Source: Candidatus Omnitrophota bacterium
Lineage (GTDB): Bacteria > Omnitrophota > Gorgyraeia > Zapsychrales > Zapsychraceae
Assembly: GCA_028280285.1 (NCBI GenBank)
Contig: JANQMA010000017.1
Span: 64,993 to 128,992 of the forward strand
Reading direction: 5' to 3'
Length of the DNA stretch: 64,000 nucleotides
The notes under the pieces were generated by a model. It saw only the letters and a list, made by a program, of their open reading frames with translations. It searched no databases and was not told where the DNA came from. The position numbers and the translations under genes were made by a program. This document shows, piece after piece, positions 3,993-28,708 of the stretch (positions are counted from its first letter, which is position 1; each line of letters starts with the position of its first letter).

Positions 3993-3995
3993 TTT

Positions 3996-4295
3996 ATGTT
4001 CGAGTTAATATTTACTAAAGCGGCCAAAAGGCACTTAAAAGAAATTGAAAAAGATAGTTCAAAAGCAGGATTGTGTCGGCAGGTCAAAAAATCACTCGGA
4101 TATCTTCAGACAAATCCCAGACACCCTTCTTTAAATACTCATCCGTATGAGGCAATCGACAATCCTATTAATCTTCGCGAAAAGGCCTTTGAGGCTTATG
4201 CGCAAAATAACACACCGTCGGCGTATCGTATTTTTTTCTGTTATGGGCCTGATAAAAAGCAGATTACAATCATTGCCATAACCCCGCATCCATAA
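3996..4295 (+). CDS. Putative type II toxin, RelE/ParE superfamily
   Basis: 99 aa, basic; C-terminal pattern YRIFFCYGPDKKQITIIAITPH resembles the YRIIY..d...v.Il.I.hR signature of RelE/ParE toxins. Confidence 0.45.
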   Translation: MFELIFTKAAKRHLKEIEKDSSKAGLCRQVKKSLGYLQTNPRHPSLNTHPYEAIDNPINLREKAFEAYAQNNTPSAYRIFFCYGPDKKQITIIAITPHP

Positions 4296-4361
4296 AAATT
4301 TGCATTTTCCCACCTATATGGCATACTTGCTAGATAATTCCTATTAATATTAGTAAATTTT

Positions 4362-16300: not shown

Positions 16301-19300
16301 TGAAGATTCTAGGAGTTTGGGTAAGGAGGTTGCGGATCAAACCGATGCGGCGGGATTGGGTGAAAGTGTTCAGAATTCAGTGTTCGGTGGTCAGCCGGAA
16401 GAAACTGATGCGGCGAATTTCAATGAGTATTTATTTTTATCACCTGAATTAACGTTGGACTATTTTGTTGCCTTACTATCAAACCTTGGAGATAAGACTG
16501 TTTTATCACTTACAGTATATCTTTTAGCTCCGTATATTGGTGCAGCACAATTGACAGATGAGTTTAAGTTAACAAATCCCTTAGCTAATACTTTATACGA
16601 CGTTGTAGTAGCTCAATTAAAAGAAATGTTCGGTAAGGACGAATTATACCCTATGGATATGAGAGGCTATTTGGATCAATTGCCATTGTTAAGCAACGAT
16701 ATTGGCAAGCATGTTTTGGAATCTCTAGGTAGTGTTAGAGCGATGGTCCATGAGTCTGAGCTTAAACATCAACCACCAATATCAATCGGTGTTGGCCAGA
16801 GCAAAAAGCTTATTTTGGCGGAGCGTTATTATACTGATCAGACTGATATGACGACTATGCATTTGTTGGATGTAACACGACTTTCCTCGAATCAATTTAA
16901 ATTGAAGGCAGAGGGGATAGATAGGCAAATTGATTTGAAGCAAGAGAGTTTAATGGGTTTAGAAATGAATTATTTGGATGAGCAAGGGCAGCCTTTTACA
17001 ATGTCAGTTAAGATGCTGTTTTCGAATAATGGTTTTCAAATTTATTATACCAATGATAACTTGGATTTTAATACTATGATCTTTGCGCTTGATTATGAAT
17101 TGATTAATTTTGTTAATGAAGTTGGTGAGCCAAAGCCTTTTCAAGATAATGCGAGTTTGGATAAGGAGAATGAGTTCCAAACCGACGCGGCGGGGTTGGG
17201 GTCTAGTGATCAGTGGTCCCGCGGTCAGTCGGAGAAATTTGATGCAGCGCGTTTAGATAAACAGCAGCTTAAAAAAATATCAAATAAAGCTCTTGGGAAT
17301 ATGTTTTGGAATGATTTTTATCGGGCATTGCTACTTTTGTTTGATAAATCGATAACATTTTATTCGCAGACAGATAAAGGGATTAAACCTTATGTATGGC
17401 ATAAACTAGTTGAACATGATCCAAGTGTTAATTTATCACTATTTGCCAAGATAGCAGTTCCAGGTTTGGATAACGTACGAGTTATAGACTCGAAATATGA
17501 TTATGTTATGAGTATATTAGACAGTTTTAATCCTTCTGCTGAATCTTTTACAAAATCAATGGAGAGCATCAAAGAGATGCTAGAAGATGATAATCAGCAG
17601 TTGGGGCTGGCTGAAAGTAAGCCGATTGCGCATAGGCATTTAATTCGTAGAGCGCTTTATTATTTTACACGTGAACATGATGAAGCCCGAGAGAATGAAA
17701 AGAAGTTGGTAGAGGTATTTGATTATGGAGCCAAAATTATCAATGAAATCAAACGGCGTAATAATATTGCCCAAAAAACATTAAAATCTCATGGAGTAAT
17801 TGTTGATGCCTCTGGTGCGGCAAAGCTGAATAATGGTGATCGATGGGCAGCCCGCCCTGCTGCTTTGCAGAAAAAACCGGAAACTCGCGTGGTCAGTGAT
17901 CAAAAGAAAGGCGGTGACGCGCTGGATTTGAGTAGAGAGAAATCTTTACAAATGTATCCACGAAAAACCTTATCCAATTTTGATTCGATTATTCATGTGT
18001 TATTTGAAGGATACACCCAAAAATTTCAATCTGGGCAAAATCCAATATTATGGAAAACACATGCAAGAAATTTATTGGAAAACGTAAGTTATTATGTGAA
18101 TGAGCATTTTATTTATCCTGAAGTCGCGATGGATACGTTTGTTAATAAAAATAAAGAATTTATCGAAAAGCTAATTGATGAAGGGAATGAACGCTATCTA
18201 TATTCTGCATTTTTAATTTATAAAGGTTTAGCCACAATGGCGGCTAAAGATTTACGTAACATTGCAGATAGTGATAGGTTGTTTGCTCAGCCACGAAAGA
18301 ATCAGCCGGTTCGAAGCTTTAGAAATCAAGCGCATAAGTTGGCTCCTTTGCGCAGGGAATTAGAGCGATTACAAGGAAGATATGTGGAGTTGCGAGAATG
18401 GGCTGAGTTCAATTTATTTTTCAATGATAAATTTCAGAAAGAATCTCAAATTGTTTATGCTTTTGAACATCATACGCAGAATTTAATTAATGTCGTTGGT
18501 GAGGTTGGTTATGATGGAGCGCTGACCTATGGAGAGGTTGATCAGTATGCTATTCAATTGCAAGGCGATGCTTATATTTTAGAAGGTGTTGTGCGTGTAT
18601 TACATGATATTAAGCTTAAGGTAGAAAGAGACTCTGCGAGTTTGGGTGAGGAGGTTGAGTTCCAAGCCGACGCGGCGGGGCTGGATTTAAAAAATTTAGA
18701 AGAAATTTCTGTTGATGAGATGAAAAAACTATTTAACGCTCTATTTTCAGAAGTTTTTTATGCTTTGTTTGAGGGTACTCTCTGGTCTCATGAATACGAA
18801 AATTATAATGAGATTGTTGAGTATGATTGGGAGAGACACAATGATTTGCATAATGTAAAGAATATTAAAGTTAATATCAATAGTGCTATGACTCTATTTG
18901 CTTTGAGGCCCAACTCGAATAAAGAAATAGACATGGCTCTCAGATCAATTGATAGATTTAAAAATGAACTACGTTTGATTGATTACACGAACCGAGAAAG
19001 TGAGTTAGATAGTTTGTTGGATCAAATGGAGGGATACAAAGATTTTGGTTTAAGTGAAGATGAACCAATTGAGTATGCATTGCTTAAACCACGATTTTTT
19101 TATCAAGCATTGCGTGCAGATCCTAATGCAGATGAGAATAGAATTAAAATGTTTACCAAAGTGAACAATTTAAAGTCTGTTATTAATGAATTTAAACGTA
19201 GACTAGAAATTGAAAAGAAAAATTTAGTTGTTACAGGGTCTGAATCTACCGATGCAGCGGGGTTGAAAAGTATTGATAAGCAAGAGTTGCGTAATATGAC

Positions 19301-20180
19301 CGATGGAGGTGTTGGTAAAACATTACGCGATCATTTTAATGAGTTTTCAAATTTGTTTGAAGCGCAAGTGTGGTCGCCTGGTTTGTATACATTGGCTGTT
19401 AGAGATTTTTCATGGACAGAAATAGTAGAGCATCATAGAGCAGATATGCTGAAAAGTATAGATGGTATTATGAATGGATCACTTAAAAATTTTGAAAATA
19501 TGTCGCAGTTAAAGAATTTTTTATGGTTGGTTTATAATTTTATGACGCAGATCAATATTTATCGCAATTTAGCTTCTTTCGATGAACTATTTGAAGAATT
19601 TTTAGAAAAGATGAAGCAATATAGCGACCGGGGAAAAGAATTTGAGAATCCTACAACATATGACCTTCGAGAAGTTAGATTGATTTATTATGTTTTAAAA
19701 GAAGATGTTAATGCAGAAGAAAACAGAAAAAAATTATCTGATACTTTAGAAAATATTAAAATAATTGTTGAAGAGATTGAACATAGAATTGAGCTTAAAT
19801 ATGAATCATTGAAAAAAAATGGTATGGAAGCTGATAAAGAACTAGATAAAATTTTTGAATCTGTAGAAGATGATTTGGGAGCTTTGACGAATATTAAGAG
19901 CTTCGAGCTTCGAGCTCCGAGCTCCGAAGTAGGTGGTATCGACCTTGACTCCAAACACCTTGACCTTCAAATCAAACGTGATGGGCGTGGTGTGGCGCTG
20001 CCGGTTCACATGCAAGATATTCCGAATATTCAGATCGATGGGCTTTATCCGGTGATTATCAATATCACGCCGGTGACCACCGTGCCGCTTATTTTCAGCC
20101 AAATCCTTGGGGAGCAAGGGGATACAGATCACGCCTCAGTAACAGATTATCCGCAGTTGTCGTATGCCATTAAAGAGTAG
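4362..20180 (+). CDS. Giant secreted/surface protein (5272 aa), modular, with repeated ASLG...DAAGL linker motif and three SAM-methyltransferase-like Rossmann modules
   Basis: Single uninterrupted ORF 15.8 kb; N-terminal signal peptide (hydrophobic core + AQAQV); 12 in-frame linker repeats; repeated modules with (I/V)LDWG(F/G)G(D/A)GT motif I-like sequence. Confidence 0.85.
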   Translation: MIIKSRLKVIINKVLVSVVLTAFIMTSIVPVNFAQAQVTPPMALPAVGTLVPLSSAHTPVHLLGLTVSPDNPLAFDFLIHSGDNPPAEQTLKQEADTLIRYFLASLTIPEKDMWVNLSPYEEDRIIEDNFARTAMGRDLLAEDYMLKQLTASLLYPDGDIGKVFWRRVRQKAEALGLKDIPTETFHKIWITPESATVFEDGQTAYVVESKLKVLLEEDYLAYSEQRIANSSAQQSVDNSLNAKRHTLNADLMREVIIPEITHEVNYGAHFARLRQIYGAMVLATWFKQNLKQTLLGQIYADQSKVKGIDTVKEDAHKRIYAQYIDSIKKGAYNLIKEDYDPVAQRIVARKHFSGGFAPDAAAITTVKTESLNAADVTTQKQINDFAFNFDAAVAQKEVFNVQTSLAESKEDPAAMKGVIDSAVMNVQQQDGDYITQLDKTADAAGLSRKIQDLRTMPTATLQAYFSILKSDFMTGRTKYTYRQHSSILSEYWSKLSEHESELSNEKFYLQDRVGRFLDVTKYLEDLDQRGIKKIKLNGVDIFHHLSNLSEPGLNQEKMLEDILQSFAELKMIRPRTDPDQNKISNSIEFKEREIKHIFLASPDVNQFAPQEPLVLSVLLHQDGDFEIVEGFDITNEDSLRIVLEKGQRPSFHYPLPSRLGDSIRISLDPNDENSLVFDRLEAPTELVHFALTADAASLHHSARGRMRLSLDDFSLYTSLLNENLQSKYLWHIIIQLARHDLLTKGFWSNVLDFSESFIAYDGQELFNMLKESFTKKGHLYPQEYLAHAINSLATIKRLAHNHSNTFEFKPGETQNIVMKVIGNDKVEPFVLTARYDRQRQQFAFKRPSSNTEEVVSMNRKQIFEILDFYRIELRPRLSEDGWTAMLEMTNAHTYRELFTYAFTPQYPLVSVPSGLLWDYLTYLGQNKRKLYKTLGIFSVNVLLPVVFEGQKLKDINFDGKNLLSFDVRWPQYQFRPLMDTLKEKQLHDLKRNSNSAVDTYVFSKEVFNKLGIVNRSDDFHAIFDTLNSLRFVNHHQSSKQHALIPVSDKPKNVHIILRENENTQKELMDATVSKLADDLLSLSFNDKSVTDLVIIQDQQIRLTIDNEITLILRQIKGNLQITYITNDQSMRDIFRFTVGFDSASLGKEKDLVGVKGVDEDAENITISQFLENAPNTMVAAFKNGFKNRTDHFGLLKRLNNNEMTAKWILMADKVLRETAGAEITYRDFSLIDFLKQKGFSKLRRNTMFSPDLFITMDGKKYIGVYVGSKGLKSTLGQFSLSSVKRKWYKKILQMDGSGLEGIILLMDTDTPEYPVRELTPINEMKGFYAFPLFEKALIEAHHRKDDLIGFPSLLYAHNFNYAESYLNDLISDVHNSIALISRINYFSPQELADFKKDVAYYEARAQQYLNYAKEGFKEHRKVFDKYIKEYKQRKIPGIYKLEEMIFTRNIDIGNVLVTSLFVLQTAKTLEQLGFDIIEFETNLNRSTKPDIIVAKNGSKYIVEAHWREVSQSKFFERNSRGFKKPSQKRRYRQYVDAHSDFKGVILSSSYRFQTQKSNVIFKHKNDDKRTKRIFIDISDDQDLIARNIEQSFDEESLGYVDHQLLSDQKKDGFSDYASMSVINENFLKANLKPGKRLESFKDRLADYLNEQILFVQSAKSREKIYDQVDLFLSGIDSLIEEYFLDSIDVDEMLSEYGKELMADLMAAGGVKSVQEAAVLLQRLLVVAFEMNHRFLEFKNNNIKDADTAKRYIDQFLNPGILELARRAEQMYKKLKVAYDNFSVMEESYVQRRGSNESFELMIKRFKDAFFSEYGSETMQKAKASFSKGGVLQKLRDFKFSNDKLTQEQLDVLIEYETVVDEIDQTLRPISKYWEILITFYNDFANDVGAQVIPLNEGPSVSVNFNFHNQFSGLSGERTSLNDAAGLSKQAQAMTKLSLGPLERHLEVLEAFEEKGVLTYSLENYMEVITMGVNPNKIGDLLAAPFYQQTDHYWVRNFTQFIYESVGLEERQSDIRFNAKEIFERVKSDRLLDKNMISAILNDLAEFKYIKNPNYADSKKTFADIEFNPGESRQIFLVNPYSLNIYETITISHDKNSGSFAIAPHANYFSDAENGQDVERAILKKRGKISHEYRLLRSQELGYSIRISLNKKNDNALTFGGVHPKNGLLIFSSVFDEASLGQEDEPADPAVLKQKDIMQLAHFDPDLVARIKTNLFQVSEVPVIRDNPAFSVPFSKEDGFFEGINDLKALMYAVQKMKDSLENISPKLNAEGVGQLSPTIASIQNDFDFLVDVQNRLRLHEGVTDTMFVYKEGLQRLMEIVKFDNRGDLYVVYAGLVMTYLQYKYSNKIIYNDFDPTDSFKLKRFFDVYSMADRFDFPATVVQTINGIGSIADKIKVVRALNAWATMRTLAKGEQTPVYFETETGEQIKTVYLKPISFDASERDKLLMMEVKRDQSNVYSVRQKGKENWQVIEQDAPRTFGLMGVHVTFMIQKKVLHIENNSRHIFIASISESINGKTYDDAMLSEYAARKIIFSAKDFLIMNEILNQDYPDLAKRHRSMLFALVHGTPLTDIWLSRPKRFVEPNANFIVEEARVRAAENRPFNISPIGAKIYLGVDDNEKKKINRSLVADVLNTWGTLIRIHTQAAYSIPVFMEEGETRQLYVVNNETKEFIKLQINQMPGYFEVIDISNGKEGYGYWVFPDHDTENGDNKIYFANGKDYIILDEDQFDQLSVINETNADLTAFAVDQASLGKVVRAEEGRYVIQKNGVNVYSDVTERDMIDVFFNNTPDLERPVAEVALYRNSREDYYISWWGGWAINETSVNDQSQWFDWNTDKSLAVRKNKILYKYELESKINKLIEQRSDSREPLYILDWGFGDGTAIDELAQKFEHIENLYFIGYGMTHDSKWSTFGETFKRKNIIIFDHIWKLEKHLKKILKGNKLALVYSHFGLAHLLRDYPDDAREQIKTLMKYMKNGASLITNYYWNDSLPSKFAKGFRKKTISPNTFSAWAIVEIFNEDAASLGQEDESTDAAGLDMLAYIMSRRVFDPDIAKELEILHAQWANIVDQFINTSKYNKKSQRLVGPTGWTMFKRYGFNKNKELYLEYFQRLGDEGVIDSFSIKVTDGRLKYFAPGLHHHSASFFGQEYATDSAPPRSGSFVVRVYEPFSKELEEEIRKIFGEFLAQYGRTTGFENFVKDFDEGVMPTVGSQIKKNPGEAENIKKAYNDVRDILVRKNKDYWQKLPRLMARLQQILISGIYVKEVIHKDEKRFKDAPPARIYAYGDMGFEDPVAFIQHLNKTTPLVAKLLLGETYLDPTSGIDINDPRIAEVVEEQPYSEQGKPIDEANLGKTGESTDAEPESFDEEIKEDKDQAAITAVDVHGTRVPGGGIIWTRMPAQYFKVLRLRRGGKAYLRESSIKGLVLENALERYRHSDTPLQKVNNHLGIDLVDEIVQLDQLRQRENEPNRVITVLDWGGGSMQAIKDILNELKAQNIKNVRLIGSGHSTYLEWKDIPEGIEVIWDVAQKLHLYIAEGSIDIIYSHYGMYHLDEQLPQYLMYLEKLLSPRAKILIYPLDGDLSEQLPGWKLEIKRKHKNISRLDVKTHKKKFWSGLISRMIWPASQRVSVRNFAPFNYSYEFTPPSRISIKSKGSDPLEGLMISSWSDTPKERIILPKRSMSSLRRRVGGRDFASLERKDEAQIDAAGLDFNGKFSMASYGNNETDVMRLNRITKGKRLIERVQPQHFRLNSAGVNIYSSLQDEEIIDILSILDSEKIARIRLNNRNTTTDYHISWEKPWRMNRTPLDAVDMFAGLKFYELESRVETIINNRQDDAEPIYIFDWGFGAGTALKELSEKFDNIPNIFFIGFGDAYYEDWHTLPSNVIIIYDQAWRLEEHLSKILKGHKIDLAFSHWALSSHFLGDYFGPKRVYFLRLMDFLKPGASFVIDALNDSGAELGIRRDFNVQKIPVSNYYFGDIFEVKNEDSRSLGKEVADQTDAAGLGESVQNSVFGGQPEETDAANFNEYLFLSPELTLDYFVALLSNLGDKTVLSLTVYLLAPYIGAAQLTDEFKLTNPLANTLYDVVVAQLKEMFGKDELYPMDMRGYLDQLPLLSNDIGKHVLESLGSVRAMVHESELKHQPPISIGVGQSKKLILAERYYTDQTDMTTMHLLDVTRLSSNQFKLKAEGIDRQIDLKQESLMGLEMNYLDEQGQPFTMSVKMLFSNNGFQIYYTNDNLDFNTMIFALDYELINFVNEVGEPKPFQDNASLDKENEFQTDAAGLGSSDQWSRGQSEKFDAARLDKQQLKKISNKALGNMFWNDFYRALLLLFDKSITFYSQTDKGIKPYVWHKLVEHDPSVNLSLFAKIAVPGLDNVRVIDSKYDYVMSILDSFNPSAESFTKSMESIKEMLEDDNQQLGLAESKPIAHRHLIRRALYYFTREHDEARENEKKLVEVFDYGAKIINEIKRRNNIAQKTLKSHGVIVDASGAAKLNNGDRWAARPAALQKKPETRVVSDQKKGGDALDLSREKSLQMYPRKTLSNFDSIIHVLFEGYTQKFQSGQNPILWKTHARNLLENVSYYVNEHFIYPEVAMDTFVNKNKEFIEKLIDEGNERYLYSAFLIYKGLATMAAKDLRNIADSDRLFAQPRKNQPVRSFRNQAHKLAPLRRELERLQGRYVELREWAEFNLFFNDKFQKESQIVYAFEHHTQNLINVVGEVGYDGALTYGEVDQYAIQLQGDAYILEGVVRVLHDIKLKVERDSASLGEEVEFQADAAGLDLKNLEEISVDEMKKLFNALFSEVFYALFEGTLWSHEYENYNEIVEYDWERHNDLHNVKNIKVNINSAMTLFALRPNSNKEIDMALRSIDRFKNELRLIDYTNRESELDSLLDQMEGYKDFGLSEDEPIEYALLKPRFFYQALRADPNADENRIKMFTKVNNLKSVINEFKRRLEIEKKNLVVTGSESTDAAGLKSIDKQELRNMTDGGVGKTLRDHFNEFSNLFEAQVWSPGLYTLAVRDFSWTEIVEHHRADMLKSIDGIMNGSLKNFENMSQLKNFLWLVYNFMTQINIYRNLASFDELFEEFLEKMKQYSDRGKEFENPTTYDLREVRLIYYVLKEDVNAEENRKKLSDTLENIKIIVEEIEHRIELKYESLKKNGMEADKELDKIFESVEDDLGALTNIKSFELRAPSSEVGGIDLDSKHLDLQIKRDGRGVALPVHMQDIPNIQIDGLYPVIINITPVTTVPLIFSQILGEQGDTDHASVTDYPQLSYAIKE

Positions 20181-20330
20181 CGGCGAAGCAGTGCCTCTGC
20201 CCTAAATAGTACCAAGTTTTGGGTCGACACATTGGTCGGCTTGTACCTATCGGTGTTGTGAAAAATACTTGCCAAATTTTACACTACATTATATTATTAT
20301 ATAAGATATGTAGTGTAAGGAGTGTGGACT

Positions 20331-20636
20331 ATGATTATTTTACAAGAGATTTTAGCTGATAGCAAAAAGCATTATCAAGAAGTCCGAAAGAAAATTCTCA
20401 AAAATCTTTCTTCGCTTCCCCAGGGGAGTGTCAAAAAACGTAAGATTTCTAAGCGTATCTATTATTATCTCCAACAGAGGGTCGGTTCTAAAATTATTCA
20501 TAAATATTTAGGTAAAGAAGAGCCGGAGGAGTTAATTAAAGAGTTAAAATTACGTAAGTCTTTGAAAGCTGAGCTTAAAAAAGTCGATGAGGCTTTAAAG
20601 GTTATACAAAAAGTCCAAGGCAAAAAGTATGGATAA
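20331..20636 (+). CDS. Small basic protein (cassette 1 gene A), possible antitoxin/regulator partner
   Basis: SD AAGGAG 9 nt upstream of ATG 20331 (ORF-track GTG 20322 less likely); 8-nt overlap with the following gene; lysine-rich C-terminus. Confidence 0.4.
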   Translation: MIILQEILADSKKHYQEVRKKILKNLSSLPQGSVKKRKISKRIYYYLQQRVGSKIIHKYLGKEEPEELIKELKLRKSLKAELKKVDEALKVIQKVQGKKYG

Positions 20637-21309
20637 TGTGATTGCCAAAATTCTGAAAGTTTTTGAAAATAATAATCTATTTGAAGAAGGCGTAGAGCTG
20701 ATTGGAAGCTGGTGTTTTTACTTGTATCAAAAACATTTAAAGGCTCCGAGTTTTCCGCTGCGAACACAGGACATTGATTTTCTAATTCCCAATCCATTTA
20801 AGGGCAAAGAGCATAAAGAGTTTATTCAGCAGTTGGAGGACTTGGGTTTTCAGAGTGAATTTAATCGGAGTGGATCGCTTTACCTTTGGAATGTGGATTT
20901 AAAAATAGAATTTATCACGCCGGCAAAAGGCAGAGGCACGGCCGATGCGGTAAAATTTAAAAAGCTGGGACTAGCGGCCGTACCTTTGAGATTTGTTAAT
21001 CTGTTGCTCAATGATCCTATTTATGTTACGGAGAAGGGAGTAAAAACAGCTCTTCCAAATCCTGCTAATTATTGCCTTCATAAGTTGGTGATTGCTAGCC
21101 GTAGAAAGACGAAGGACAAGCAAATGAAAGATTTACAGCAAGCCATATCTACCTACAGTATTGCTGATAAGAGGTATTTAAAAAAACAATTTAACAACTT
21201 TCCCGAAAAATGGAAAGCTACCGCTGTCAGTATGCTTAAAAAGAATCGAGATCAGCTGCCTCTTTTTGATGCGGAGATAGAGCAAATTTTAATTACACTA
21301 CAAAATTAA
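20629..21309 (+). CDS. Putative minimal-nucleotidyltransferase-fold protein (AbiEii/GSU2403-like) (cassette 1 gene B)
   Basis: GSWCFYLYQ...RTQDIDFLI matches the G[SG]x9-13 DhD nucleotidyltransferase signature; translationally coupled to upstream small gene. Confidence 0.35.
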   Translation: MDNVIAKILKVFENNNLFEEGVELIGSWCFYLYQKHLKAPSFPLRTQDIDFLIPNPFKGKEHKEFIQQLEDLGFQSEFNRSGSLYLWNVDLKIEFITPAKGRGTADAVKFKKLGLAAVPLRFVNLLLNDPIYVTEKGVKTALPNPANYCLHKLVIASRRKTKDKQMKDLQQAISTYSIADKRYLKKQFNNFPEKWKATAVSMLKKNRDQLPLFDAEIEQILITLQN

Positions 21310-21358
21310 TAATTTTATATAATGTAGTGTAAAATTTTTTTATAAGTTTGTTGACAGC

Positions 21359-21472
21359 GCGCCGGTGACCACCGTCCCGCTTATTTTTAGCCAAATTCTT
21401 GAAGATCAACAGGATACAGATCACGCCTCGGTGACGGATTATCCGCAGTTGTCGTATGCGATTAAAGAGTGA
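21359..21472 (+). pseudogene. Displaced duplicate of the 3' end of the giant gene (last ~37 codons, no start codon)
   Basis: ~90% nt identity to 20068..20180; encodes APVTTVPLIFSQILEDQQDTDHASVTDYPQLSYAIKE* versus native PVTTVPLIFSQILGEQGDTDHASVTDYPQLSYAIKE*; 8 synonymous vs 3 nonsynonymous differences. Confidence 0.7.
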
Positions 21473-21579
21473 TTGGTGATTTAGAAAGTATATGATATTA
21501 TAAAATTCTAGTGGCTATTCCTCCCCAAAGTATGCTGTAACTTCAAACTATTCGATTTCCCTTACAATATTAATTTTTG

Positions 21580-21608
21580 ACAAGTATACGTCAATGGCGT
21601 ATACTTAC
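21580..21608 (+). promoter_or_regulatory. Sigma-70-type promoter for the HigBA-like pair with overlapping GTATAC palindromes
   Basis: TTGACA - 17 nt - TATACT; spacer contains GTATACGTCAATGGCGTATAC; followed by ACTTACTAAGTAAG palindrome. Confidence 0.4.
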
Positions 21609-21619
21609 TAAGTAAGGGG

Positions 21620-21943
21620 TTGTGCATGGAGATCATTGAAACGCCAATCTTTACAAAAATGATTGGGGATGTTCTTTCAGATGAAGAATATAGAGAATTA
21701 CAATGGGCATTGTTGCTTAATCCGAAGGTAGGTGTTGTTATCCCTGGAGGTGCGGGATTAAGAAAACTACGTTGGCATTTTTCTGGAAGTGGAAAAAGAG
21801 GGGGATTGCGTGTTATTTATTATTTCTATTCAGAAGACGAAGCAATTTATTTGTTGTTTTCGTATAAAAAATCACAACAAAATGCTTTAACGCGGGCACA
21901 AATAAAAATTCTAAGAGAGTATGTTAAGGGAGGTGTGCTGTGA
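21620..21943 (+). CDS. HigB-like toxin (RelE/ParE superfamily, phage-related COG4679-type)
   Basis: WHFSGSGKRGGLRVIYYFYSEDEAIYLLFSYKKSQQ matches the GxxGGxRVIYY..IYLL..Y.K signature; 4-nt ATGA overlap with downstream HTH gene. Confidence 0.6.
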   Translation: MCMEIIETPIFTKMIGDVLSDEEYRELQWALLLNPKVGVVIPGGAGLRKLRWHFSGSGKRGGLRVIYYFYSEDEAIYLLFSYKKSQQNALTRAQIKILREYVKGGVL

Positions 21944-22230
21944 AAGACAAAGATTTTAACAATTTGTTGACGAGTATTGACCAGGCACGAAAGATACATA
22001 AGGGAAAATTAAAACCAAGCCGTGTTTTCATATTTGATCCAGTGATGGTTAAAAACATAAGGAAAAAATTCAAAGTATCTCAATCTGAATTTGCTTATAT
22101 GATTGGTGTGAGTGTGGCGACTTTGCAAAACTGGGAGCAGGGCCGCCGAAAACCTGATGGGCCGGCATTGGCATTGTTGAAGGTTGCAGAAATGAATCCT
22201 GAAATTGTGATGAAAGCTTTGTATGCGTAA
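21940..22230 (+). CDS. HigA-like antitoxin, XRE-family helix-turn-helix protein
   Basis: SQSEFAYMIGVSVATLQNWEQGRRKP is a canonical XRE HTH; toxin-first gene order typical of HigBA. Confidence 0.65.
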   Translation: MKDKDFNNLLTSIDQARKIHKGKLKPSRVFIFDPVMVKNIRKKFKVSQSEFAYMIGVSVATLQNWEQGRRKPDGPALALLKVAEMNPEIVMKALYA

Positions 22231-22270
22231 GGGGATTGAGGGGCTCAATCCTTGAGGAGAAAAAGGAGGT

Positions 22271-22327
22271 ATGAAAAAAGCGGGTTTGCCTGAATACCCC
22301 CAATTATCATACGCAGTAAAAGATTAG
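22271..22327 (+). other. 18-codon mini-ORF (MKKAGLPEYPQLSYAVKD) = third, more decayed copy of the giant gene's C-terminal tail, preceded by a strong SD
   Basis: AAAAGGAGGT 1 nt upstream of ATG; last 11 residues EYPQLSYAVKD vs native DYPQLSYAIKE. Confidence 0.4.
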
Positions 22328-22395
22328 CCGCACCTCTTGTTGAATACAAAAGAATATGTTATACTCTATTAGAACATAAAAGAGGAGATAATATT

Positions 22396-22638
22396 ATGGC
22401 TAAAACTGTGACCTTAAGGCTTTCGGATGAGGAGTACCAAGCGATCCTTGCCTCCGCTCAAACAGAGCACCGGCCTATTTCTAACTTTATTACACATGCT
22501 GTGTTGGCCAAAATTAATGAATCCTTATTTGTGGATCCTGTTGAGATGAATGAAATTAAGTCTGATAAAGAGTTAATGAAGCGGCTTAAAAGTGGATCTA
22601 GTCAGGCCAAAAAGATGAAGGGAAAGTTTGTTGAGTAA
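22396..22638 (+). CDS. Ribbon-helix-helix (CopG/ParD-like) antitoxin
   Basis: MAKTVTLRLSDEEYQAILASA N-terminal beta-strand/helix pattern of RHH antitoxins; overlaps toxin gene by 11 nt. Confidence 0.5.
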   Translation: MAKTVTLRLSDEEYQAILASAQTEHRPISNFITHAVLAKINESLFVDPVEMNEIKSDKELMKRLKSGSSQAKKMKGKFVE

Positions 22639-22909
22639 TTTTCGCATATTTGAGACAGATCAATTTGCAGAAGATTTAGAACAAGATTTTTCCGGACAGC
22701 GTGAACGCATCAAAAAGAAGCTCCAAAGTTTTGTCTATCCACAGCTTCGTGATCAGCCTTATTTCGGTAAAAACATTAAAAAGTTACGTAATTTCTCTCT
22801 GGAAACCTGGCGATATCGCATAGGCGGGTTTCGGTTTTTTTATGAAATTGATGAGGAGCAAAAAATTGTTGTTATGATTGCGGCGAGCAATCGGGAAGGT
22901 GCATATTAA
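22628..22909 (+). CDS. RelE/ParE family toxin
   Basis: WRYRIGGFRFFYEIDEEQKIVVMIAASNR matches RelE/ParE C-terminal signature; TTG start overlapping antitoxin. Confidence 0.6.
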   Translation: MLSNFRIFETDQFAEDLEQDFSGQRERIKKKLQSFVYPQLRDQPYFGKNIKKLRNFSLETWRYRIGGFRFFYEIDEEQKIVVMIAASNREGAY

Positions 22910-22941
22910 AAATAGAAATATATTTATCGAGGTATGTTTAA

Positions 22942-23106
22942 ATGGAAATTGATAGATCAGATCAAGGACGTATTGCGGAAAAGGTCATGAAAGAGGCTGT
23001 CAAAGAAGCGATTGAAGAGCAGCTCAAAAGAGGGGTTCCTGCCGTATTTATGCGTGATGGTAAAATCTGCTACCAAATGCCGGATGGGCGCATTGTCGAG
23101 GCCTAG
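22942..23106 (+). CDS. Small ORF (54 aa, MEIDRSDQGRIAEKVMKEAVKEAIEEQLKRGVPAVFMRDGKICYQMPDGRIVEA), unknown
   Basis: Not in ORF track (below length cut-off); GAGGT 7 nt upstream of ATG; antisense 63-aa ORF 22957..23148 is the alternative. Confidence 0.25.
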   Translation: MEIDRSDQGRIAEKVMKEAVKEAIEEQLKRGVPAVFMRDGKICYQMPDGRIVEA

Positions 23107-23192
23107 CCGATTCTTCCCTATTATTATATCTCCACCCATACCACACAATATTTGCTTGCATTCCAGGGGACTTTTGTTAGAATATCCGTCTC

Positions 23193-24503
23193 ATGGCCAG
23201 CACTGATTTAATGGACAAAATCGTATCTCTCTGTAAACGCCGCGGATTTATCTTCCAATCTTCCGAAATATACGGTGGGCTCGCAAACTCCTGGGACTAC
23301 GGACCTTTGGGCGTTGAGCTGAAAAATAATGTCAAGCAAGCCTGGTGGAAACGCAATGTCCATGGCCGCGATGATATGGTCGGTTTAGACGCCGCGATCT
23401 TTATGCATCCTAATACATGGAAGGCCTCAGGTCATCTCGATACATTCAACGATATGATGGTTGATTGTAAGGATTGTAATAAACGTCTGCGTGAAGATCA
23501 TATTGAAGATAATACATGCCCGGATTGTGGAAGTAGTAACTTTACCGAAGCGCGTCCGTTTAATCTGATGCTTGATTCTTATCTCGGCCCTGTGCGTGAT
23601 GAGTCAGGTAGAACATACCTCAGACCGGAAACCGCTCAGGGTATTTTTGTGAATTTTAAAAATATATTGGATTCGACCTCGCGTAAGCTGCCATTCGGTG
23701 TGGCGCAGATCGGAAAATCATTCCGTAATGAAGTTACCGCCGGTAATTTTACCTTTCGCCAGCGTGAGTTTGAACAGATGGAGATTGAATATTTTTGCCA
23801 TCCGGATCAAGCCGATAAATTTTTTGAAGAGTGGATTGAAAATAGATTTCAGTGGTACAAAGATTTAGGTATTCGTACGGAAAATTTGCAGTTACGCAAA
23901 CATGAAGATGACGAGCTTGCCCATTATGCCAAAGGCTGCACGGATGTTGAATACAAATTTCCATTTGGTTGGTCGGAGCTTGAAGGGATCGCGCATCGCA
24001 GTGACTTTGATTTAAAGCAGCACTCACAACATTCCGGTAAAGAATTAATTTACCGTGATCCGTTCACCAATGAAGTATTTACGCCGTATGTGATCGAGCC
24101 GTCCGGCGGGGTTGATCGCGGGATGCTCGCGTTTTTGGTTGATGCTTATCATGAAGAAGAGGTCGATGGTAAGCCGCGTACGGTGTTAAAACTGCACAAG
24201 GATTTGGTGCCAACGAAAGTGGCGGTGCTGCCGCTGCTTAAGAAAAACACAGAAGTGGTTGAGTTGTGTCAAAAGATCAAGAATGATCTGATAAAAGATA
24301 TGACATGCACCTACAATGATACCGCGGCTATCGGCAAGCTTTATCGTCGTCAGGATGAGGTAGGGACATTTTATTGTGTGACGGTGGATGTCGACTCGCT
24401 TGAAGATAATCAAGTGACCGTGCGCGATAGGGACAGCATGGCGCAAGAGCGCGTTGCGCTGGATCAGTTGAAGCAGTACCTGCGTAATAAGTTTGAGGAC
24501 TAG
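23193..24503 (+). CDS. glyQS: Glycine--tRNA ligase (alpha2 dimeric class II type)
   Basis: Class II motifs and zinc-ribbon insertion (CKDCNKRLRE..CPDCG); FRNE, GIAHRSDFDL, ERVALDQ regions characteristic of GlyQS. Confidence 0.85.
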   Translation: MASTDLMDKIVSLCKRRGFIFQSSEIYGGLANSWDYGPLGVELKNNVKQAWWKRNVHGRDDMVGLDAAIFMHPNTWKASGHLDTFNDMMVDCKDCNKRLREDHIEDNTCPDCGSSNFTEARPFNLMLDSYLGPVRDESGRTYLRPETAQGIFVNFKNILDSTSRKLPFGVAQIGKSFRNEVTAGNFTFRQREFEQMEIEYFCHPDQADKFFEEWIENRFQWYKDLGIRTENLQLRKHEDDELAHYAKGCTDVEYKFPFGWSELEGIAHRSDFDLKQHSQHSGKELIYRDPFTNEVFTPYVIEPSGGVDRGMLAFLVDAYHEEEVDGKPRTVLKLHKDLVPTKVAVLPLLKKNTEVVELCQKIKNDLIKDMTCTYNDTAAIGKLYRRQDEVGTFYCVTVDVDSLEDNQVTVRDRDSMAQERVALDQLKQYLRNKFED

Positions 24504-24530
24504 TGATCGGTGATCAGTGGTCAGTGATCG
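24501..24530. repeat. GTGATC-word repeat arm (left) flanking the four-helix-bundle gene
   Basis: TAGTGATCGGTGATCAGTGGTCAGTGATCG; reverse-complementary to the arm at 24956..25005. Confidence 0.55.
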
Positions 24531-24580
24531 TAAACCAGGTAAAGTAATAATCTATCCCCCAAAAAGAAAGAGGGGGATAA

Positions 24581-24958
24581 ATGCAAATACGTAATTTTCA
24601 AGATTTAGCTATTTGGCAACGGAGTCATCAATTGACTCTAAAAGTTTACAAACTTACCAAGCATCTTCCTGAAGATGAGCGGTATGGAATTACAAATCAG
24701 GTGAGAAGATCATCTGTATCAATCTGTGCGAATATATCTGAAGGTTGCAGCAAGGGAACAAAAGAATTTATCAGATATTTAAATATAGCACGGGGCTCTT
24801 TAGAAGAAACAAAACATTATTTCATATTAATGAAAGATCTTGGTTATTGTTCTGTCGAGCAGTATCAGGTTTTGTTTAGTGAATTAGACCAAATTGGAAA
24901 AATGATTTACGGTCTTAAAATGCGTTTGGTGGAAAAATCCAAAACACTTAAATACTGA
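24581..24958 (+). CDS. Four-helix-bundle protein (TIGR02436 / 23S rRNA intervening-sequence protein family)
   Basis: AIWQRSHQLTLKVYKLTKHLPEDERYGITNQVRRSSVSICANISEG..ARGSLEETKHY matches the family signature; RBS enclosed in ATCCCCC..GGGGGAT hairpin 24553-24577. Confidence 0.7.
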   Translation: MQIRNFQDLAIWQRSHQLTLKVYKLTKHLPEDERYGITNQVRRSSVSICANISEGCSKGTKEFIRYLNIARGSLEETKHYFILMKDLGYCSVEQYQVLFSELDQIGKMIYGLKMRLVEKSKTLKY

Positions 24959-25005
24959 TTCACTGATCACTTTCTGATCACTGATTACTGATCACTGACC
25001 ACTAT
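24956..25005. repeat. GTGATC-word repeat arm (right), inverted relative to 24501..24530
   Basis: TGATTCACTGATCACTTTCTGATCACTGATTACTGATCACTGACCAC. Confidence 0.55.
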
Positions 25006-25029
25006 TTAACAAAACGACAGGAGACCAAT

Positions 25030-27789
25030 ATGGCAAAGAAGTTAGTTTATTCATTCGGCGGTGGTAAAGCTGAAGGCAACGCAACGATGCGTAATCTCTT
25101 AGGAGGCAAGGGCGCTAATCTCGCCGAGATGGCAGGACATAAGAATCTTAAGTTACCGGTACCTCCGGGTTTTACTATTACAACGGATGTTTGTACGCTG
25201 TACTACGCAAACAAGAAAAAATATCCGAAAGAGCTTAAAGCGCAGGTGGAAGCGGCGGTTAAAAAAGCGGAAAAGCTGACCGGCAAAAAATTCGGCGATG
25301 TGAATAATCCACTTCTCGTGTCTATCCGCTCAGGCGCGCGTGCATCTATGCCGGGGATGATGGAAACAATTTTGAATGTCGGTCTAACGGAAAAGACACT
25401 CAAAGGTTTGGCCGCCAAAACAGGCAGCGAGCGTTTTGCGTATGATGCGTATCGACGACTCATTACGATGTATGCCGATGTTGTTATGGAAAAGTCTGCC
25501 GGGATCGAACCGGAAGAAGGTCAAGGCATCCGTAAGCAATTAGACGAAATCCTCGAGGAGACTAAACAGGTTAAAGGGGTCGAAGATGATTCAGACCTTG
25601 ATGTTGAGACGCTTAAAGATTTAATCGCGATCTACAAAGCGAAAATCAAAGATGTGTTAGGTAAACCTTTTCCGGATGATGCCGAAAAGCAGCTGTGGGG
25701 AGGCATTACAGCCGTATTTAATTCATGGAATGGGAAGCGCGCGATTGCTTATCGCGCAATCGAAGGCATTCCGGGTGAATGGGGCACAGCGGTTAATGTT
25801 CAGGTTATGGCCTTTGGTAATTTAGGCGATACATCCTCAACCGGTGTTGCGTTTACACGTAATCCCGGTAATGGCGAAAATAAATTCTACGGCGAGTATT
25901 TGGTTAACGCGCAAGGGGAAGACGTTGTGGCCGGTATTCGTACACCCGCACCGATTAATAAGTATTCCCAATCGGATAATAACAAGCATTTGCTTACTTT
26001 GGAGAAAGAAAATCCAAAAGTGTACAAAGAGCTTGTCGCGATCCAAAAGCGTTTGGAAAAACATTACAAAGATATGCAGGATATCGAGTTTACTGTCGAG
26101 GACGGTACGCTTTATATGCTTCAGTGCCGCAACGGTAAACGTAACGGTCCGGCGGCGGTGCGTATGGCGGTTGATATGGTCCGTGAGAAATTAATCACTA
26201 AAGAAGAAGCGGTTAACCGCGTTACTCCTTCTCAATTAGATGAACTACTTCATCCGATCATCGATCCAAAGCAAGAGGCTGCAGCCTATACATTGGCTAA
26301 AGGTTTGCCGGCAGGTCCAGGTGGAGCTTGCGGTAAGATTGTTTTTACCTCTGATGATGCGGTAGCCTGGCATAAAAAAGGTGAAAAAGTAATCCTTGTG
26401 CGTGAAGAGACTAACCCCGAAGATGTTGAAGGGATGCGCGCCGCTGAAGCGATCTTAACCGCGCGTGGCGGTATGACATCGCACGCAGCGCTTGTTGCCC
26501 GCGGATGGGGTAAATGTTGCATCGTCGGTTGTTCCGACATCGATGTTGATGTGGACGGTAAGAAAATGAAAGTCGGTGGATCGACGTATAAAGAAGGCGA
26601 CACGATCACACTAAATGGGACTAAAGGAACATTTTACGAAGGCGCGCTTGATATGATCGACGGCTCTTCGGAGAATAAGTACTTTAACGAGTTTCTTAAA
26701 ATGTGTGACTCTATACGCACGCTTAAAATCCGCACCAACGGCGAGACACCGGAAGACGCGCAAAAAGCACGTCAATTTGGGGCCGAAGGTATCGGGCTTT
26801 TCCGTACAGAGCATATGTTCTACGGTAAAAACTCCGAAGAGCCGCTTTTTAAAATGCGTAAGATGATTATGTCGAAAGACGAATCAGAAAGGCGCGCAGC
26901 GCTTGATGAGCTTTATCCACATGTGAAGTCGGATATTAAGGCAACGTTAGATGCCATGGCGGGGTTTCCGGTAACGATTCGTCTTTTGGATCCGCCTTTG
27001 CATGAGTTTGTTCCAACGAAAAAAGATGCCATTGATTCGTTGGCTAACAGCTTGGGTATTGATATTCCGGCACTTGAAAAACGCATGGCAGGCCTCCACG
27101 AGGTCAACCCAATGATGGGGCATCGCGGTGTGCGCTTGGGAATCACCTTTCCGGAGGTCACCGAGACCCAAGTCCGTGCGATTTTCGAGGCCACGGTTGA
27201 ATTGATCCAAGCGGGTAAGAAAATTAATCCAGAGATCATGGTGCCGGTTGTCGGGGCGGTGAAAGAGCTTGAGGAAACCAAGAAAATAGTAAATCGGGTT
27301 TACGATGAAGTTAAAAAGAAGTATAATGTGAAAAAAATTCCTTATATGTTTGGGACGATGATCGAAATTCCGCGCGCGGCGCTGACAGCCGATCAATTGG
27401 CCGAATCGGCGGAATTCTTTTCGTTTGGTACAAATGATTTAACACAAATGAGTTTTGGTTTTTCAAGGGATGATATCGGTGGCTTTCTGCCGGAATACCT
27501 TGAAAGTGACATATTGTCAGACGATCCATTCCAAAGCATCGATCAAACCGGTGTTGGGGAATTGATCGACATTGGCGTTACGCGCGGCCGTAAGACGCGC
27601 CAAAAGCTTAAAGTCGGTATTTGCGGTGAGCATGGAGGGGATCCGGCATCGATTGAATTCTGCCAAAAAGTTGGCATGGATTATGTGAGTTGCTCGCCAT
27701 TCCGTGTTCCGATTGCAAGGCTTGCGGCAGCCCAGTCGGCTGTAAGGGCCAAGGCGCAGGCGAAACCGCGTAGAAAAGCGAAGAAGTAG
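25030..27789 (+). CDS. ppdK: Pyruvate, phosphate dikinase
   Basis: Full-length 919 aa; N-terminal ATP-grasp region (GGKGANLAEM), phospho-His domain (GGMTSHAALVARGWGKCCIVG), C-terminal PEP-utilizing domain (CGE..GDP). Confidence 0.9.
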   Translation: MAKKLVYSFGGGKAEGNATMRNLLGGKGANLAEMAGHKNLKLPVPPGFTITTDVCTLYYANKKKYPKELKAQVEAAVKKAEKLTGKKFGDVNNPLLVSIRSGARASMPGMMETILNVGLTEKTLKGLAAKTGSERFAYDAYRRLITMYADVVMEKSAGIEPEEGQGIRKQLDEILEETKQVKGVEDDSDLDVETLKDLIAIYKAKIKDVLGKPFPDDAEKQLWGGITAVFNSWNGKRAIAYRAIEGIPGEWGTAVNVQVMAFGNLGDTSSTGVAFTRNPGNGENKFYGEYLVNAQGEDVVAGIRTPAPINKYSQSDNNKHLLTLEKENPKVYKELVAIQKRLEKHYKDMQDIEFTVEDGTLYMLQCRNGKRNGPAAVRMAVDMVREKLITKEEAVNRVTPSQLDELLHPIIDPKQEAAAYTLAKGLPAGPGGACGKIVFTSDDAVAWHKKGEKVILVREETNPEDVEGMRAAEAILTARGGMTSHAALVARGWGKCCIVGCSDIDVDVDGKKMKVGGSTYKEGDTITLNGTKGTFYEGALDMIDGSSENKYFNEFLKMCDSIRTLKIRTNGETPEDAQKARQFGAEGIGLFRTEHMFYGKNSEEPLFKMRKMIMSKDESERRAALDELYPHVKSDIKATLDAMAGFPVTIRLLDPPLHEFVPTKKDAIDSLANSLGIDIPALEKRMAGLHEVNPMMGHRGVRLGITFPEVTETQVRAIFEATVELIQAGKKINPEIMVPVVGAVKELEETKKIVNRVYDEVKKKYNVKKIPYMFGTMIEIPRAALTADQLAESAEFFSFGTNDLTQMSFGFSRDDIGGFLPEYLESDILSDDPFQSIDQTGVGELIDIGVTRGRKTRQKLKVGICGEHGGDPASIEFCQKVGMDYVSCSPFRVPIARLAAAQSAVRAKAQAKPRRKAKK

Positions 27790-27810
27790 GAGTAATAGAA
27801 AATTGATAAT

Positions 27811-27867
27811 GGTGGTCAGAGTTCAGTGATCGTAGCCCATGATTTCTGACCACTGATCACTGATCAC
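27811..27867. repeat. Self-complementary GTGATC/GTGGTC-word hairpin repeat
   Basis: GGTGGTCAGAGTTCAGTGATCG ... CTGACCACTGATCACTGATCAC. Confidence 0.6.
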
Positions 27868-27874
27868 TAAATAT

Positions 27875-28708
27875 ATGACCGATCCCATCAAGGCCTACCT
27901 CAAAGACGTTCGCCCGATTCCGCTTTTAACGGCGGAGGAAGAAATCGAGCTTGCCAAGCGTATTAAAAAGGGCGACAAAAAAGCGCGCGATAAAATGATC
28001 CGTGCTAACTTGCGTCTTGTTATCAGCATTGCCAAACGCTACACCAATCTAGGTGTTCCTCTGGCGGATTTGATCGAAGAGGGCAATATCGGCCTTATGA
28101 AAAGTGTCGAGAAATTTGATCCGGATAAAGGATTTCGTTTCTCAACCTACGGCGCTTGGTGGATTAAGCAGGGTATATCACGCGCTATCATTGATCAGGG
28201 TAAAATGATCCGTGTGCCCGTTTATATGAATGAGGAAATCTCCAAATATAAAAAGGCCATGGAGCAGTTAACGCACAAATTAAACCGCAAGCCGCGTTTA
28301 GCCGAGATTGCCAAAAAGCTTAAAATCACAATCGAACGGGTACGCGAGCTTGAAGGCGCGATTACAAAAATGTCAAGTCTTGATGCGCCGATTGGGGATG
28401 GCGGCGACGGGCAGGTTATGGATATTATTCAAGATGAAAACGCCACATCACCGGATGAAGAGCTGGAACTCGATTTTAATAAAGAACGTGCCACTGGATT
28501 TCTTGACTTATTAAGCGAACGCGAACAAAAGATTTTAGAGATGAGGTATGGCTTGAAAGATGGAGAAACACGCACATTGGCTGACATTGCCAAAGAGCTT
28601 GGTGTTTCCCGTGAGCGTGTACGCCAGATTGAGGCGGCGACGATCAAAAAGATTCGACAGATCATTGAGCAGCAAGATCAGGAAAAAGAGCAAGAGCAAG
28701 ATAAATAG
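27875..28708 (+). CDS. RNA polymerase sigma factor, sigma-70 family (compact RpoD/SigA-like, no region 1.1)
   Basis: Regions 2 ([35 protein letters not shown]), 3 and 4 ([21 protein letters not shown]) present. Confidence 0.8.

Follow-up and report, generated by a model that had tools for sequence, protein, structure and literature searches.

A putative nucleotidyltransferase toxin-antitoxin-like operon with two predicted operators in an Omnitrophota genome

The DNA considered here is a stretch of 64,000 nucleotides, hereafter the window, from the uncultured Candidatus Omnitrophota bacterium (GenBank assembly GCA_028280285.1, contig JANQMA010000017.1, positions 64,993 to 128,992 of the forward strand). 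The subject of this analysis is a small cassette within it, in which two overlapping genes, one for a DUF6788 protein (gene 1) and the other for a PF12281 nucleotidyltransferase (gene 2), are framed by copies of a short inverted motif. An earlier, sequence-only reading of this DNA took the motif for the terminal inverted repeats (TIRs) of a transposon-like element. In its place, and with a probability of about two in three, we propose that the cassette is a self-regulated two-gene nucleotidyltransferase operon of the toxin-antitoxin-like type, brought in by recombination and not a jumping element. Its features, together with those of its surroundings, are collected in Table 1.

Table 1. Features of the cassette and of its surroundings, numbered from the first letter of the window.
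Feature	Position	Strand	Remarks
tail1	20068..20180	+	3' end (37 codons and the TAG stop) of the 5272-aa open reading frame (4362-20180); functional copy of a three-fold direct repeat
Spacer, origin not assigned	20181..20268	+	Between the stop of the giant gene and the cassette promoter; within the direct repeats and hence part of the insert
Sigma-70-like promoter, TTGCCA-17 nt-TATTAT	20269..20297	+	10/12 consensus matches; left half-site of P1 in the promoter spacer
P1, promoter operator (predicted)	20279..20318	.	TTACACTACA-N20-TGTAGTGTAA; from the inverted-repeat scan and conservation
Shine-Dalgarno GGAG of gene 1	20319..20322	+	Read from the sequence
Gene 1, DUF6788, 101 aa, pI 10.06	20331..20636	+	Presumed operator-binding regulator, antitoxin-like partner
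Gene 2, PF12281 (GSU2403-type) nucleotidyltransferase, 226 aa	20629..21309	+	Presumed toxin
P2, second operator (predicted)	21293..21332	.	Left half-site is gene 2 codons T223-L224-Q225; stop codon in the spacer
27-nt stretch from P2 to the displaced gene tail	21333..21359	+	3' end is the illegitimate junction
tail2	21360..21472	+	Displaced copy of the last 37 codons, TGA stop; tblastn E 7.8e-19
RelE/HTH module	21577..22230	+	RelE/HigB-like gene 21626-21943, helix-turn-helix (HTH) antitoxin gene 21940-22230
tail3	22248..22327	+	Older frameshifted remnant (ending in ..GEKGGMKKAGLPEYPQLSYAVKD and a stop); from the inverted/direct-repeat scan and tblastn
RHH/ParE module	22396..22909	+	Ribbon-helix-helix (RHH) antitoxin-like gene 22396-22638, ParE-like toxin gene 22628-22909

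The two genes and their families

The cassette spans 1058 bp and, as the sequence-only reading had stated, it contains two genes only and no transposase. In the same reading, the cargo comprised a small, basic protein and, coupled to it in translation, a minimal GSU2403-type protein with the nucleotidyltransferase fold, and this description stands: the two genes overlap by 8 nt (ATGGATAA), and the product of the second matches the Pfam family PF12281 (NTP_transf_8) over residues 5-188 with 91.7 bits, against a gathering cutoff of 26.3, and E 8.6e-26. The additional suggestion of an AbiEii protein finds no support, with no match to PF08843 at E<=1 and no matching PADLOC model.

Homologues of the gene 2 protein come mostly from metagenome-assembled genomes (MAGs) of Omnitrophota and are named "GSU2403 family nucleotidyltransferase fold protein" by their sources. 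The residues of the polymerase-beta-type nucleotidyltransferase motif G-S...D-x-D, namely G26, S27, D48, and D50, are invariant across 26 sequences. When the AlphaFold2 (AF2) model of this protein (pLDDT 78.6) was compared with known structures by Foldseek, the nearest were ANT(2'')-Ia (E 2e-4) and the Mycobacterium tuberculosis toxin MenT1 (E 4e-4), with TM values of 0.45-0.55, while a sequence search of the Protein Data Bank gave nothing meaningful, i.e., no solved relative by sequence. The AF2 model of the gene 1 protein (pLDDT 91.8) consists of a helix (residues 2-28), a three-stranded sheet (33-61), and a second helix (66-97); the protein matches no HTH family and is not of the AbiEi type, with its two domains and winged helix. 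The fold of arm-type integrase DNA-binding domains was considered for it, and it is not claimed here, as the Foldseek matches are weak only (3jtz, E 0.64; 3rmp, E 1.1).

The DUF6788 family is large, since a profile search returned 1,076 cluster representatives at 50% identity, and some of these are fused to PF12281, a fusion that is recurrent. In one case (P0233) the DUF6788 domain is instead fused to an HNH endonuclease domain, which suggests that DUF6788 is a portable nucleic-acid-binding module. Proteins of 364 aa encoded by rhizobial plasmids, also of the "GSU2403 family", carry an N-terminus that weakly resembles DUF6788 and is fused to the enzyme; genes of this type are found in 266 plasmid records, most of them of conjugative plasmids from rhizobia. 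In one example from Rhizobium etli p42d (L182, NC_004041.2 18892-19986), a perfect palindrome, GGTTATACTGTTTTT-G-AAAAACAGTATAACC, lies just 5' of the ribosome-binding site.

Two conserved palindromes around the gene pair

The 13-mers of the sequence-only reading lie where it had placed them, at 20277-20289 (TTTTACACTACAT), 20308-20320 (ATGTAGTGTAAGG), and 21322-21334 (ATGTAGTGTAAAA), and the second of them does overlap the Shine-Dalgarno (SD) sequence of gene 1, its GG being the start of the GGAG that stands 8 nt 5' of the ATG (20331). A fourth copy of the motif, TTACACTACAA at 21293-21303, within the end of gene 2, had been overlooked. With this copy included, the four form two palindromes of about 40 bp, TTACACTACA-N20-TGTAGTGTAA, designated P1 and P2, whose arms in the inverted-repeat scan of the window measure 11 and 10 bp and whose AT-rich spacers measure 18-20 nt. 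P1 and P2 are identical and lie about 1 kb apart, in direct orientation around the gene pair. Seen in this way, the supposed single pair of termini consists of the left arm of P1 and the right arm of P2, that is, the outer arms of two palindromes. The left 13-mer and the neighboring copy with which it was proposed to form a hairpin are the two arms of P1.

In the window, the 11-mer occurs five times at one mismatch or less, against 0.91 expected, and none of 100 shuffles reaches five. A lone 13-bp inverted pair within about 1 kb of an AT-rich 64-kb window is unremarkable by itself, and we regard the conservation of the motif in about 50 other loci as the strongest evidence that it is real. The relatives were collected in two ways: three close ones were fetched via their proteins, and 80 genome loci via a protein-pattern scan. 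Both palindromes bracket the gene pair in about 50 loci in which gene 2 is 41-74% identical to that of the window, and in these the half-sites are spaced exactly 30 bp from start to start. The loci belong to Omnitrophota and to MAGs labelled Planctomycetia, Margulisiibacteriota, Armatimonadota, and others, and they stand in unrelated neighborhoods.

Of 58 loci, nearly all have P1 at 46-59 nt 5' of the start codon of gene 1 (one has it at 105 nt), and 537 of its 540 half-site cells (99%) are canonical. It is followed by AGGAG in nearly all loci. In most relatives, the spacer of P1 holds an extended -10 element, TGnTATAAT, the last T of which is the first base of the right half-site, and the promoter layout of the window, built around the left half-site, is shared with its nearest two relatives (L002 and L003). 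Thus, over the 58 loci, a palindromic operator-like site covers the predicted operon promoter, spanning either its -35 and -10 elements or its extended -10 element.

P2 has a different setting, inside the coding sequence. Its left half-site is always in frame and is read as T-L-Q near the C-terminus of the gene 2 protein, and the stop codon of this gene comes 14-32 nt after the start of the half-site, sometimes as the TAG inside the right half-site. On the 3' side of the right half-site, nothing is conserved among the loci and there is no general T-run. The codons under the left half-site are nearly frozen, with ACA used in 95% of cases for T223, CTA in 98% for L224, and CAA in 89% for Q225; by way of control, other conserved residues of gene 2 with four- or six-fold degenerate codons use their top codon in only 24-55%. 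The P2 variants comprise 18 broken pairs, 14 G-U pairs, and 2 compensated pairs, and because these rare variants are mostly uncompensated, an RNA stem is not the thing preserved. As the codon usage shows, the constraint on P2 is one that acts at the DNA level.

A more distant subfamily (30-38% identity) is found in Actinomycetota, Atribacterota, Spirochaetes, and Cloacimonadota. It keeps the DUF6788 gene and the spacing of the half-sites, while the half-sites themselves differ (TTACCAGACA, TTACCTAACA, TTGCCTAACA, and TGCCCTACA). Typically, two tandem palindromes are found upstream of the genes and none at the 3' end, one site being on a TTGACA/TATAAT promoter and the other before the SD sequence. 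The two-operator design appears to be ancestral, with the second operator of the window's subfamily situated at the far end of the operon. Moreover, the residue that follows the YYYL strand of DUF6788 tracks the center of the half-site, with Q paired to ACT, N to CAG, and A to CTA. Taken as a whole, the findings fit palindromes that are operators read by the DUF6788 sheet. The sequence-only reading had mentioned, as a fallback, an operator pair for autoregulation, and it is this option that conservation, the codon freeze, and the covariation favor.

Predicted regulation and competing explanations

According to the model that we propose, the DUF6788 protein would bind palindromes in which the 10-bp half-sites start 30 bp from each other. 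Occupancy of P1 would cover the promoter and thereby turn transcription off, and P2 would serve as an auxiliary operator, most likely by forming a loop with P1, by halting RNA polymerase where the toxin gene ends, or by both. As for the PF12281 enzyme, it would be the growth-inhibiting effector, by analogy with the tRNA-nucleotidylating MenT and AbiEii enzymes. We have moderate confidence that DUF6788 binds both palindromes and that its binding to P1 represses the promoter, and less confidence that gene 2 encodes a MenT-like growth inhibitor held in check by gene 1. The latter proposal draws on the toxin-antitoxin array in which the pair sits, on the similarity of fold, and on the finding that gene 2 is disrupted in 7 of 56 loci and gene 1 in none of 58; this asymmetry is marginal (with the gene lengths taken into account, P about 0.08) and may include assembly errors. 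The disrupted genes (L040, L044, L048, L055, L059, L060, and L078) are truncated or frameshifted, or have an internal deletion of about 184 bp (L060 and L078); in these loci the DUF6788 gene stays intact, as usually do both palindromes.

Several points weigh against this model, in addition to the marginal asymmetry just mentioned. Both the DNA binding of DUF6788 and the toxicity of gene 2 are computational predictions, and a DNA-binding fold is not established for gene 1, the model of which has no significant structural match (the top one is prefoldin, E 0.37). Neither protein matches a PADLOC defence model, the pair has no NCBIfam model, and a literature search returned nothing on either the DUF6788 or the PF12281 family and no precedent for a toxin-antitoxin operon with an operator at its 3' end. 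The covariation between protein and operator spans 3-4 lineages only. Finally, the DUF6788-nucleotidyltransferase fusions fit poorly with a simple scheme in which an antitoxin neutralizes a toxin.

These fusions are also the starting point of the rival that survives best, namely that the pair is not a toxin-antitoxin system and is instead a two-subunit, elsewhere fused, DNA-targeted nucleotidyltransferase, for example a regulated housekeeping or defence enzyme, of which DUF6788 would be the DNA-binding or regulatory domain. The recurrence of the fusions, the rhizobial 364-aa proteins with their weakly DUF6788-like N-terminus, and the lack of a matching toxin-antitoxin or defence model are all in line with this proposal, but the module sits in a toxin-antitoxin array, has a patchy horizontal distribution, shows decay confined to the enzyme gene, and has the bona fide toxin MenT1 nearest to its fold. 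We consider this explanation unlikely, if still one to be reckoned with, and it leaves the operator interpretation of the palindromes unchanged.

Within the toxin-antitoxin-like model, the best-precedented options for the role of P2 are probably looping and a roadblock, as for LacI at O3. A specific form of the latter can be envisaged, in which DUF6788, once abundant enough to occupy P2 and perhaps looped to P1, would stop RNA polymerase before the stop codon of gene 2, so that the toxin would be made from a stop-less message, tagged by transfer-messenger RNA (tmRNA), and degraded, while the regulator would be made whole. Since the left arm of P2 is always 5' of the gene 2 stop, such a block would act against the toxin selectively, destroying it and leaving the regulator unharmed. 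If true, it would be a device that sets the toxin-to-antitoxin ratio, and one absent from the distant subfamily, where both operators are upstream; we regard it as a doubtful, speculative refinement.

Slightly less probable still is the explanation that P2 works as RNA, either as a 3' stem-loop terminator or as a protection against exonucleases, and that its identity to P1 is incidental or results from duplication. When folded as RNA, the P2 region indeed gives a stem of 10 bp (z-scores from -2.9 to -5.4), and in the window it is followed by a run of seven T. Yet this run is not conserved in the other loci, the terminator scan gives no call at P2, the loop would have 20 nt, and Rfam finds nothing at this site. 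Furthermore, uncompensated changes dominate at P2 (18 broken pairs versus 2 compensated), and each half-site holds to the P1 sequence instead of drifting with its partner as a pair, whereas a hairpin needs neither the exact operator sequence nor a 30-bp spacing kept across phyla. A terminator as a conserved function of P2 was accordingly set aside on the absence of a conserved T-run and the silence of the terminator scan. Pairing at the RNA level between the right arm of P1 and the left arm of P2 was also rejected, as the extended -10 element puts the transcription start at or beyond the right arm of P1.

Acquisition of the cassette and known systems for comparison

The gene upstream of the cassette is a single open reading frame of 5272 aa with repeated linker motifs (..D[AS]ASLG..TDAAGL..), the first 700 aa and last 400 aa of which match no Pfam family. 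Its C-terminal block of about 60 aa (GGIDLD...IINITPV) is seen again where many large metagenomic proteins end, in some contigs several times, and giant genes have been reported for Omnitrophota (bioRxiv 10.1101/2023.11.21.568195). The end of this gene is present three times, in the order giant gene with tail1, DUF6788-nucleotidyltransferase pair, tail2, RelE/HTH module, tail3, and RHH/ParE module. Tail1 and tail2 make up a direct repeat of 111 nt with 89% identity (20068-20178 and 21360-21470) that flanks the cassette, and they are homologous precisely up to the stop codon (TAG in one, TGA in the other) and not beyond it. The insertion junctions do not coincide with the palindromes, the left one preceding P1 by 100 nt and the right one following P2 by 27 nt; the spacer between tail1 and the promoter shows no conservation in other loci. 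Tail3 follows the RelE/HTH module, its tblastn match (22256-22327, E 1.8e-5) having a stop at the homologous position and a frameshift further upstream. Tail2 starts at the equivalent of position 20068, and tail3 about 28 nt further in.

The differences between these tails are informative. By codon position (1/2/3) they number 1/3/10 between tail1 and tail2, a comparison that taken alone is marginal against an in-situ model (P about 0.05), and 7/3/19 between tail1 and tail3, with all seven codons of YPQLSYA changed synonymously. Such a bias toward the third position implies that the displaced tails are diverged functional alleles rather than in-situ duplicates, and it indicates, as far as can be read from the sequences, a sequential displacement through recombination anchored by homology. 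Gene-end repeats of the same sort, 39-248 nt long and 75-98% identical, bracket the cassette in about 10 other loci, where they belong to other genes, and the third-position bias is also seen in two of them, L029 (7/6/19) and L020 (2/0/5). At the second of these (2347-2679 and 3716-4570), the flanking repeat (248 nt, 97% identity) comes from the 5' portion of the downstream gene, with a truncated 5' copy upstream, and the locus is the mirror image of the arrangement in the window.

Two displaced and decaying tails thus stand between the three toxin-antitoxin-like modules, and each module seems to have been brought in together with a gene end of its own. In the scenario that we propose, the cassette, not being self-mobile, would have come with a donor's copy of the 3' end of the 5272-aa gene, entering through recombination that was anchored by homology, its far junction being illegitimate, and both the tail of the resident gene and the older toxin-antitoxin modules would have been pushed downstream. 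A metagenome scan with the last 110 aa of the giant gene returned distant domain relatives only (at most 71% over 63 aa), and a donor, an empty site, or an orthologous locus was not found among them; paralogous genes elsewhere in the same genome are possible donors. Integration by a site-specific route, with one fixed att core within the gene tail, was considered as well, and is disfavored on the grounds that tail2 and tail3 start differently, that other loci use other genes, and that there is no integrase.

As for the rest of the surroundings, the promoter of the RelE/HTH module is close to consensus (TTGACA-17-TATACT), and a 12-bp palindrome of the module's own, AAGTATACGTCA/TGGCGTATACTT (21582-21606), overlaps it and looks like a conventional operator. 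Over positions 15181-28000, the final 5 kb of the giant gene and the toxin-antitoxin array have a G+C content of 36-39%, as compared with 45% from the glycyl-tRNA synthetase gene onward. Just after the latter gene, at 24581-24958, lies a gene for a 23S rRNA-intervening-sequence protein (PF05635, E 1e-38).

Two readings of the palindromes as sites of mobility remain to be weighed. In the first, P1 and P2 would be directly oriented recombination sites, such that the cassette is excised as a circle and re-integrates at a solo palindrome in the manner of integrons or dif modules. The identical 40-bp sites are indeed directly oriented around the cassette, and a scan of viral contigs (IMG/VR, L085-L091) found 7 loci, 6 of them distinct, with a solo TTACACTACA-N20-TGTAGTGTAA lacking the gene pair, 4 of the 6 at the exact 30-bp spacing. 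However, a direct-repeat control pattern of the same composition gives 10 viral matches, so that the solo count is not above chance, and no viral contig contains DUF6788. Neither a recombinase nor, among the neighbors, an integrase was found, the 20-nt spacers misfit the cores of tyrosine recombinases, the half-sites are without attC (GTTRRRY) or dif cores, the junctions in the window are not at the palindromes, and the distant subfamily has its sites in tandem upstream. We consider this reading very unlikely. The solo viral palindromes, one of which is beside a tRNA gene and another upstream of a terminase gene, are probably due to chance; their interpretation as phage decoys or empty sites is doubtful for the same reasons (10 control matches versus 7, and no viral DUF6788), and a viral scan with the operator of the distant subfamily gave 0 matches.

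The second, and least probable of all, is the transposon-like interpretation from which this analysis departed, i.e., a non-autonomous element similar to miniature inverted-repeat transposable elements (MITEs) or to the palindrome-associated transposable elements (PATEs) of the IS200/IS605 type, with the palindromes as ends for a transposase acting in trans. The conserved unit is bounded by palindromes on both sides, with the similarity between loci stopping just outside, and occurs in many different neighborhoods; but no target-site duplication or other short direct repeat was found in the 12-nt flanks of 49 loci, each cassette has exactly two palindromes and no further copies, dispersed or with different cargo, were seen in the window, in the ~6-kb neighborhoods of 80 loci, or in 80 unrelated loci, the junctions fall 0-200 nt beyond the palindromes and are marked by diverged gene-end repeats of 40-250 nt (in the window and about 10 loci), the tandem upstream palindromes of the distant subfamily cannot define ends, P1 carries the promoter, the 20-nt spacer is unlike recombinase sites or TnpA hairpins, and there is no transposase or integrase among the neighboring genes of the window. 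Nor does the 13-mer occur only here, the outcome named in the sequence-only reading as speaking against mobility: the motif recurs widely and is invariably accompanied by the same cargo, as expected of an operator and not of a TIR that is independent of its cargo.

Setting the transposon lead aside as false leaves a testable DUF6788/PF12281 system in its place. What emerges here, on our interpretation, is a nucleotidyltransferase toxin-antitoxin-like family, so far uncharacterized, with an unusual split pair of operators in an array built by recombination. The pair is widespread, with about 1,000 DUF6788 clusters at 50% identity and a fused relative on hundreds of rhizobial plasmids, and its regulator, which has no structural homologue, appears to read 10-bp half-sites that are three helical turns apart. 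The second predicted operator, which in this one large subfamily has shifted into the last codons of the presumed toxin, with synonymous sites frozen across phyla, is clear evidence for selection at the DNA level within a coding region, and a looping or roadblock mechanism of toxin control becomes directly testable. In addition, the three nested gene tails document how toxin-antitoxin modules can build up behind a conserved gene without a recombinase, and scans for TIRs should learn to spot this pattern.

Among the known systems, the closest are those of AbiE and MenAT (AbiEi-AbiEii, MenA-MenT, and Rv2827c-Rv2826c), which are also bicistronic, with a small upstream partner and a minimal polymerase-beta-type nucleotidyltransferase, and which include MenT1, the structural neighbor of gene 2. 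Their antitoxins autoregulate via inverted repeats at the promoter (PMC7319586; PMC3985639), and for the AbiEi-type antitoxin Rv2827c there are two sets of such repeats (PMC7319586). The present system differs in its enzyme, PF12281 versus the DUF1814/PF08843 of AbiE, and in its partner, a DUF6788 protein of the helix, sheet, helix type versus the winged-helix AbiEi. In addition, its half-sites are 30 bp apart, its second operator lies on the last codons of the toxin gene and not on the promoter, and both toxicity and a tRNA target are presumed by analogy.

The auxiliary operators of the lac system, O3 at the 3' end of lacI and O2 inside lacZ, offer a parallel for P2, as a site over a coding 3' end far from the main operator. 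According to PMC3711431 (citing Abo et al. 2000) and PMC13584721, LacI bound at O3 acts by looping and as a roadblock that truncates the lacI mRNA, with subsequent SsrA tagging. The protein families are unrelated, and while O3 ends the gene of the regulator, P2, a predicted site, ends that of the presumed toxin. With MITEs and other TIR elements, the cassette shares a perfect 13-bp inverted pair about 1 kb apart and no transposase between them; it differs in having no target-site duplication, no dispersed copies, a constant cargo, and junctions outside the repeats, which are here the halves of two predicted operators, one on the promoter and the other embedded in the coding sequence.

Lastly, the array resembles the effector-immunity arrays of the Vibrio cholerae type VI secretion system (T6SS) and the Rhs loci, for which sequential displacement through illegitimate recombination facilitated by homology was proposed (PMC5361080). 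In both cases, the anchor is in a conserved upstream gene, the new cargo comes directly after it, the old gene end is shifted downstream along with the earlier modules, with directly oriented orphan fragments as remnants, and an integrase plays no part. What sets the window apart is that it is a giant gene whose conserved, extreme 3' tail was displaced, and that the cargo consists of toxin-antitoxin-like modules with no obvious functional tie to that gene.

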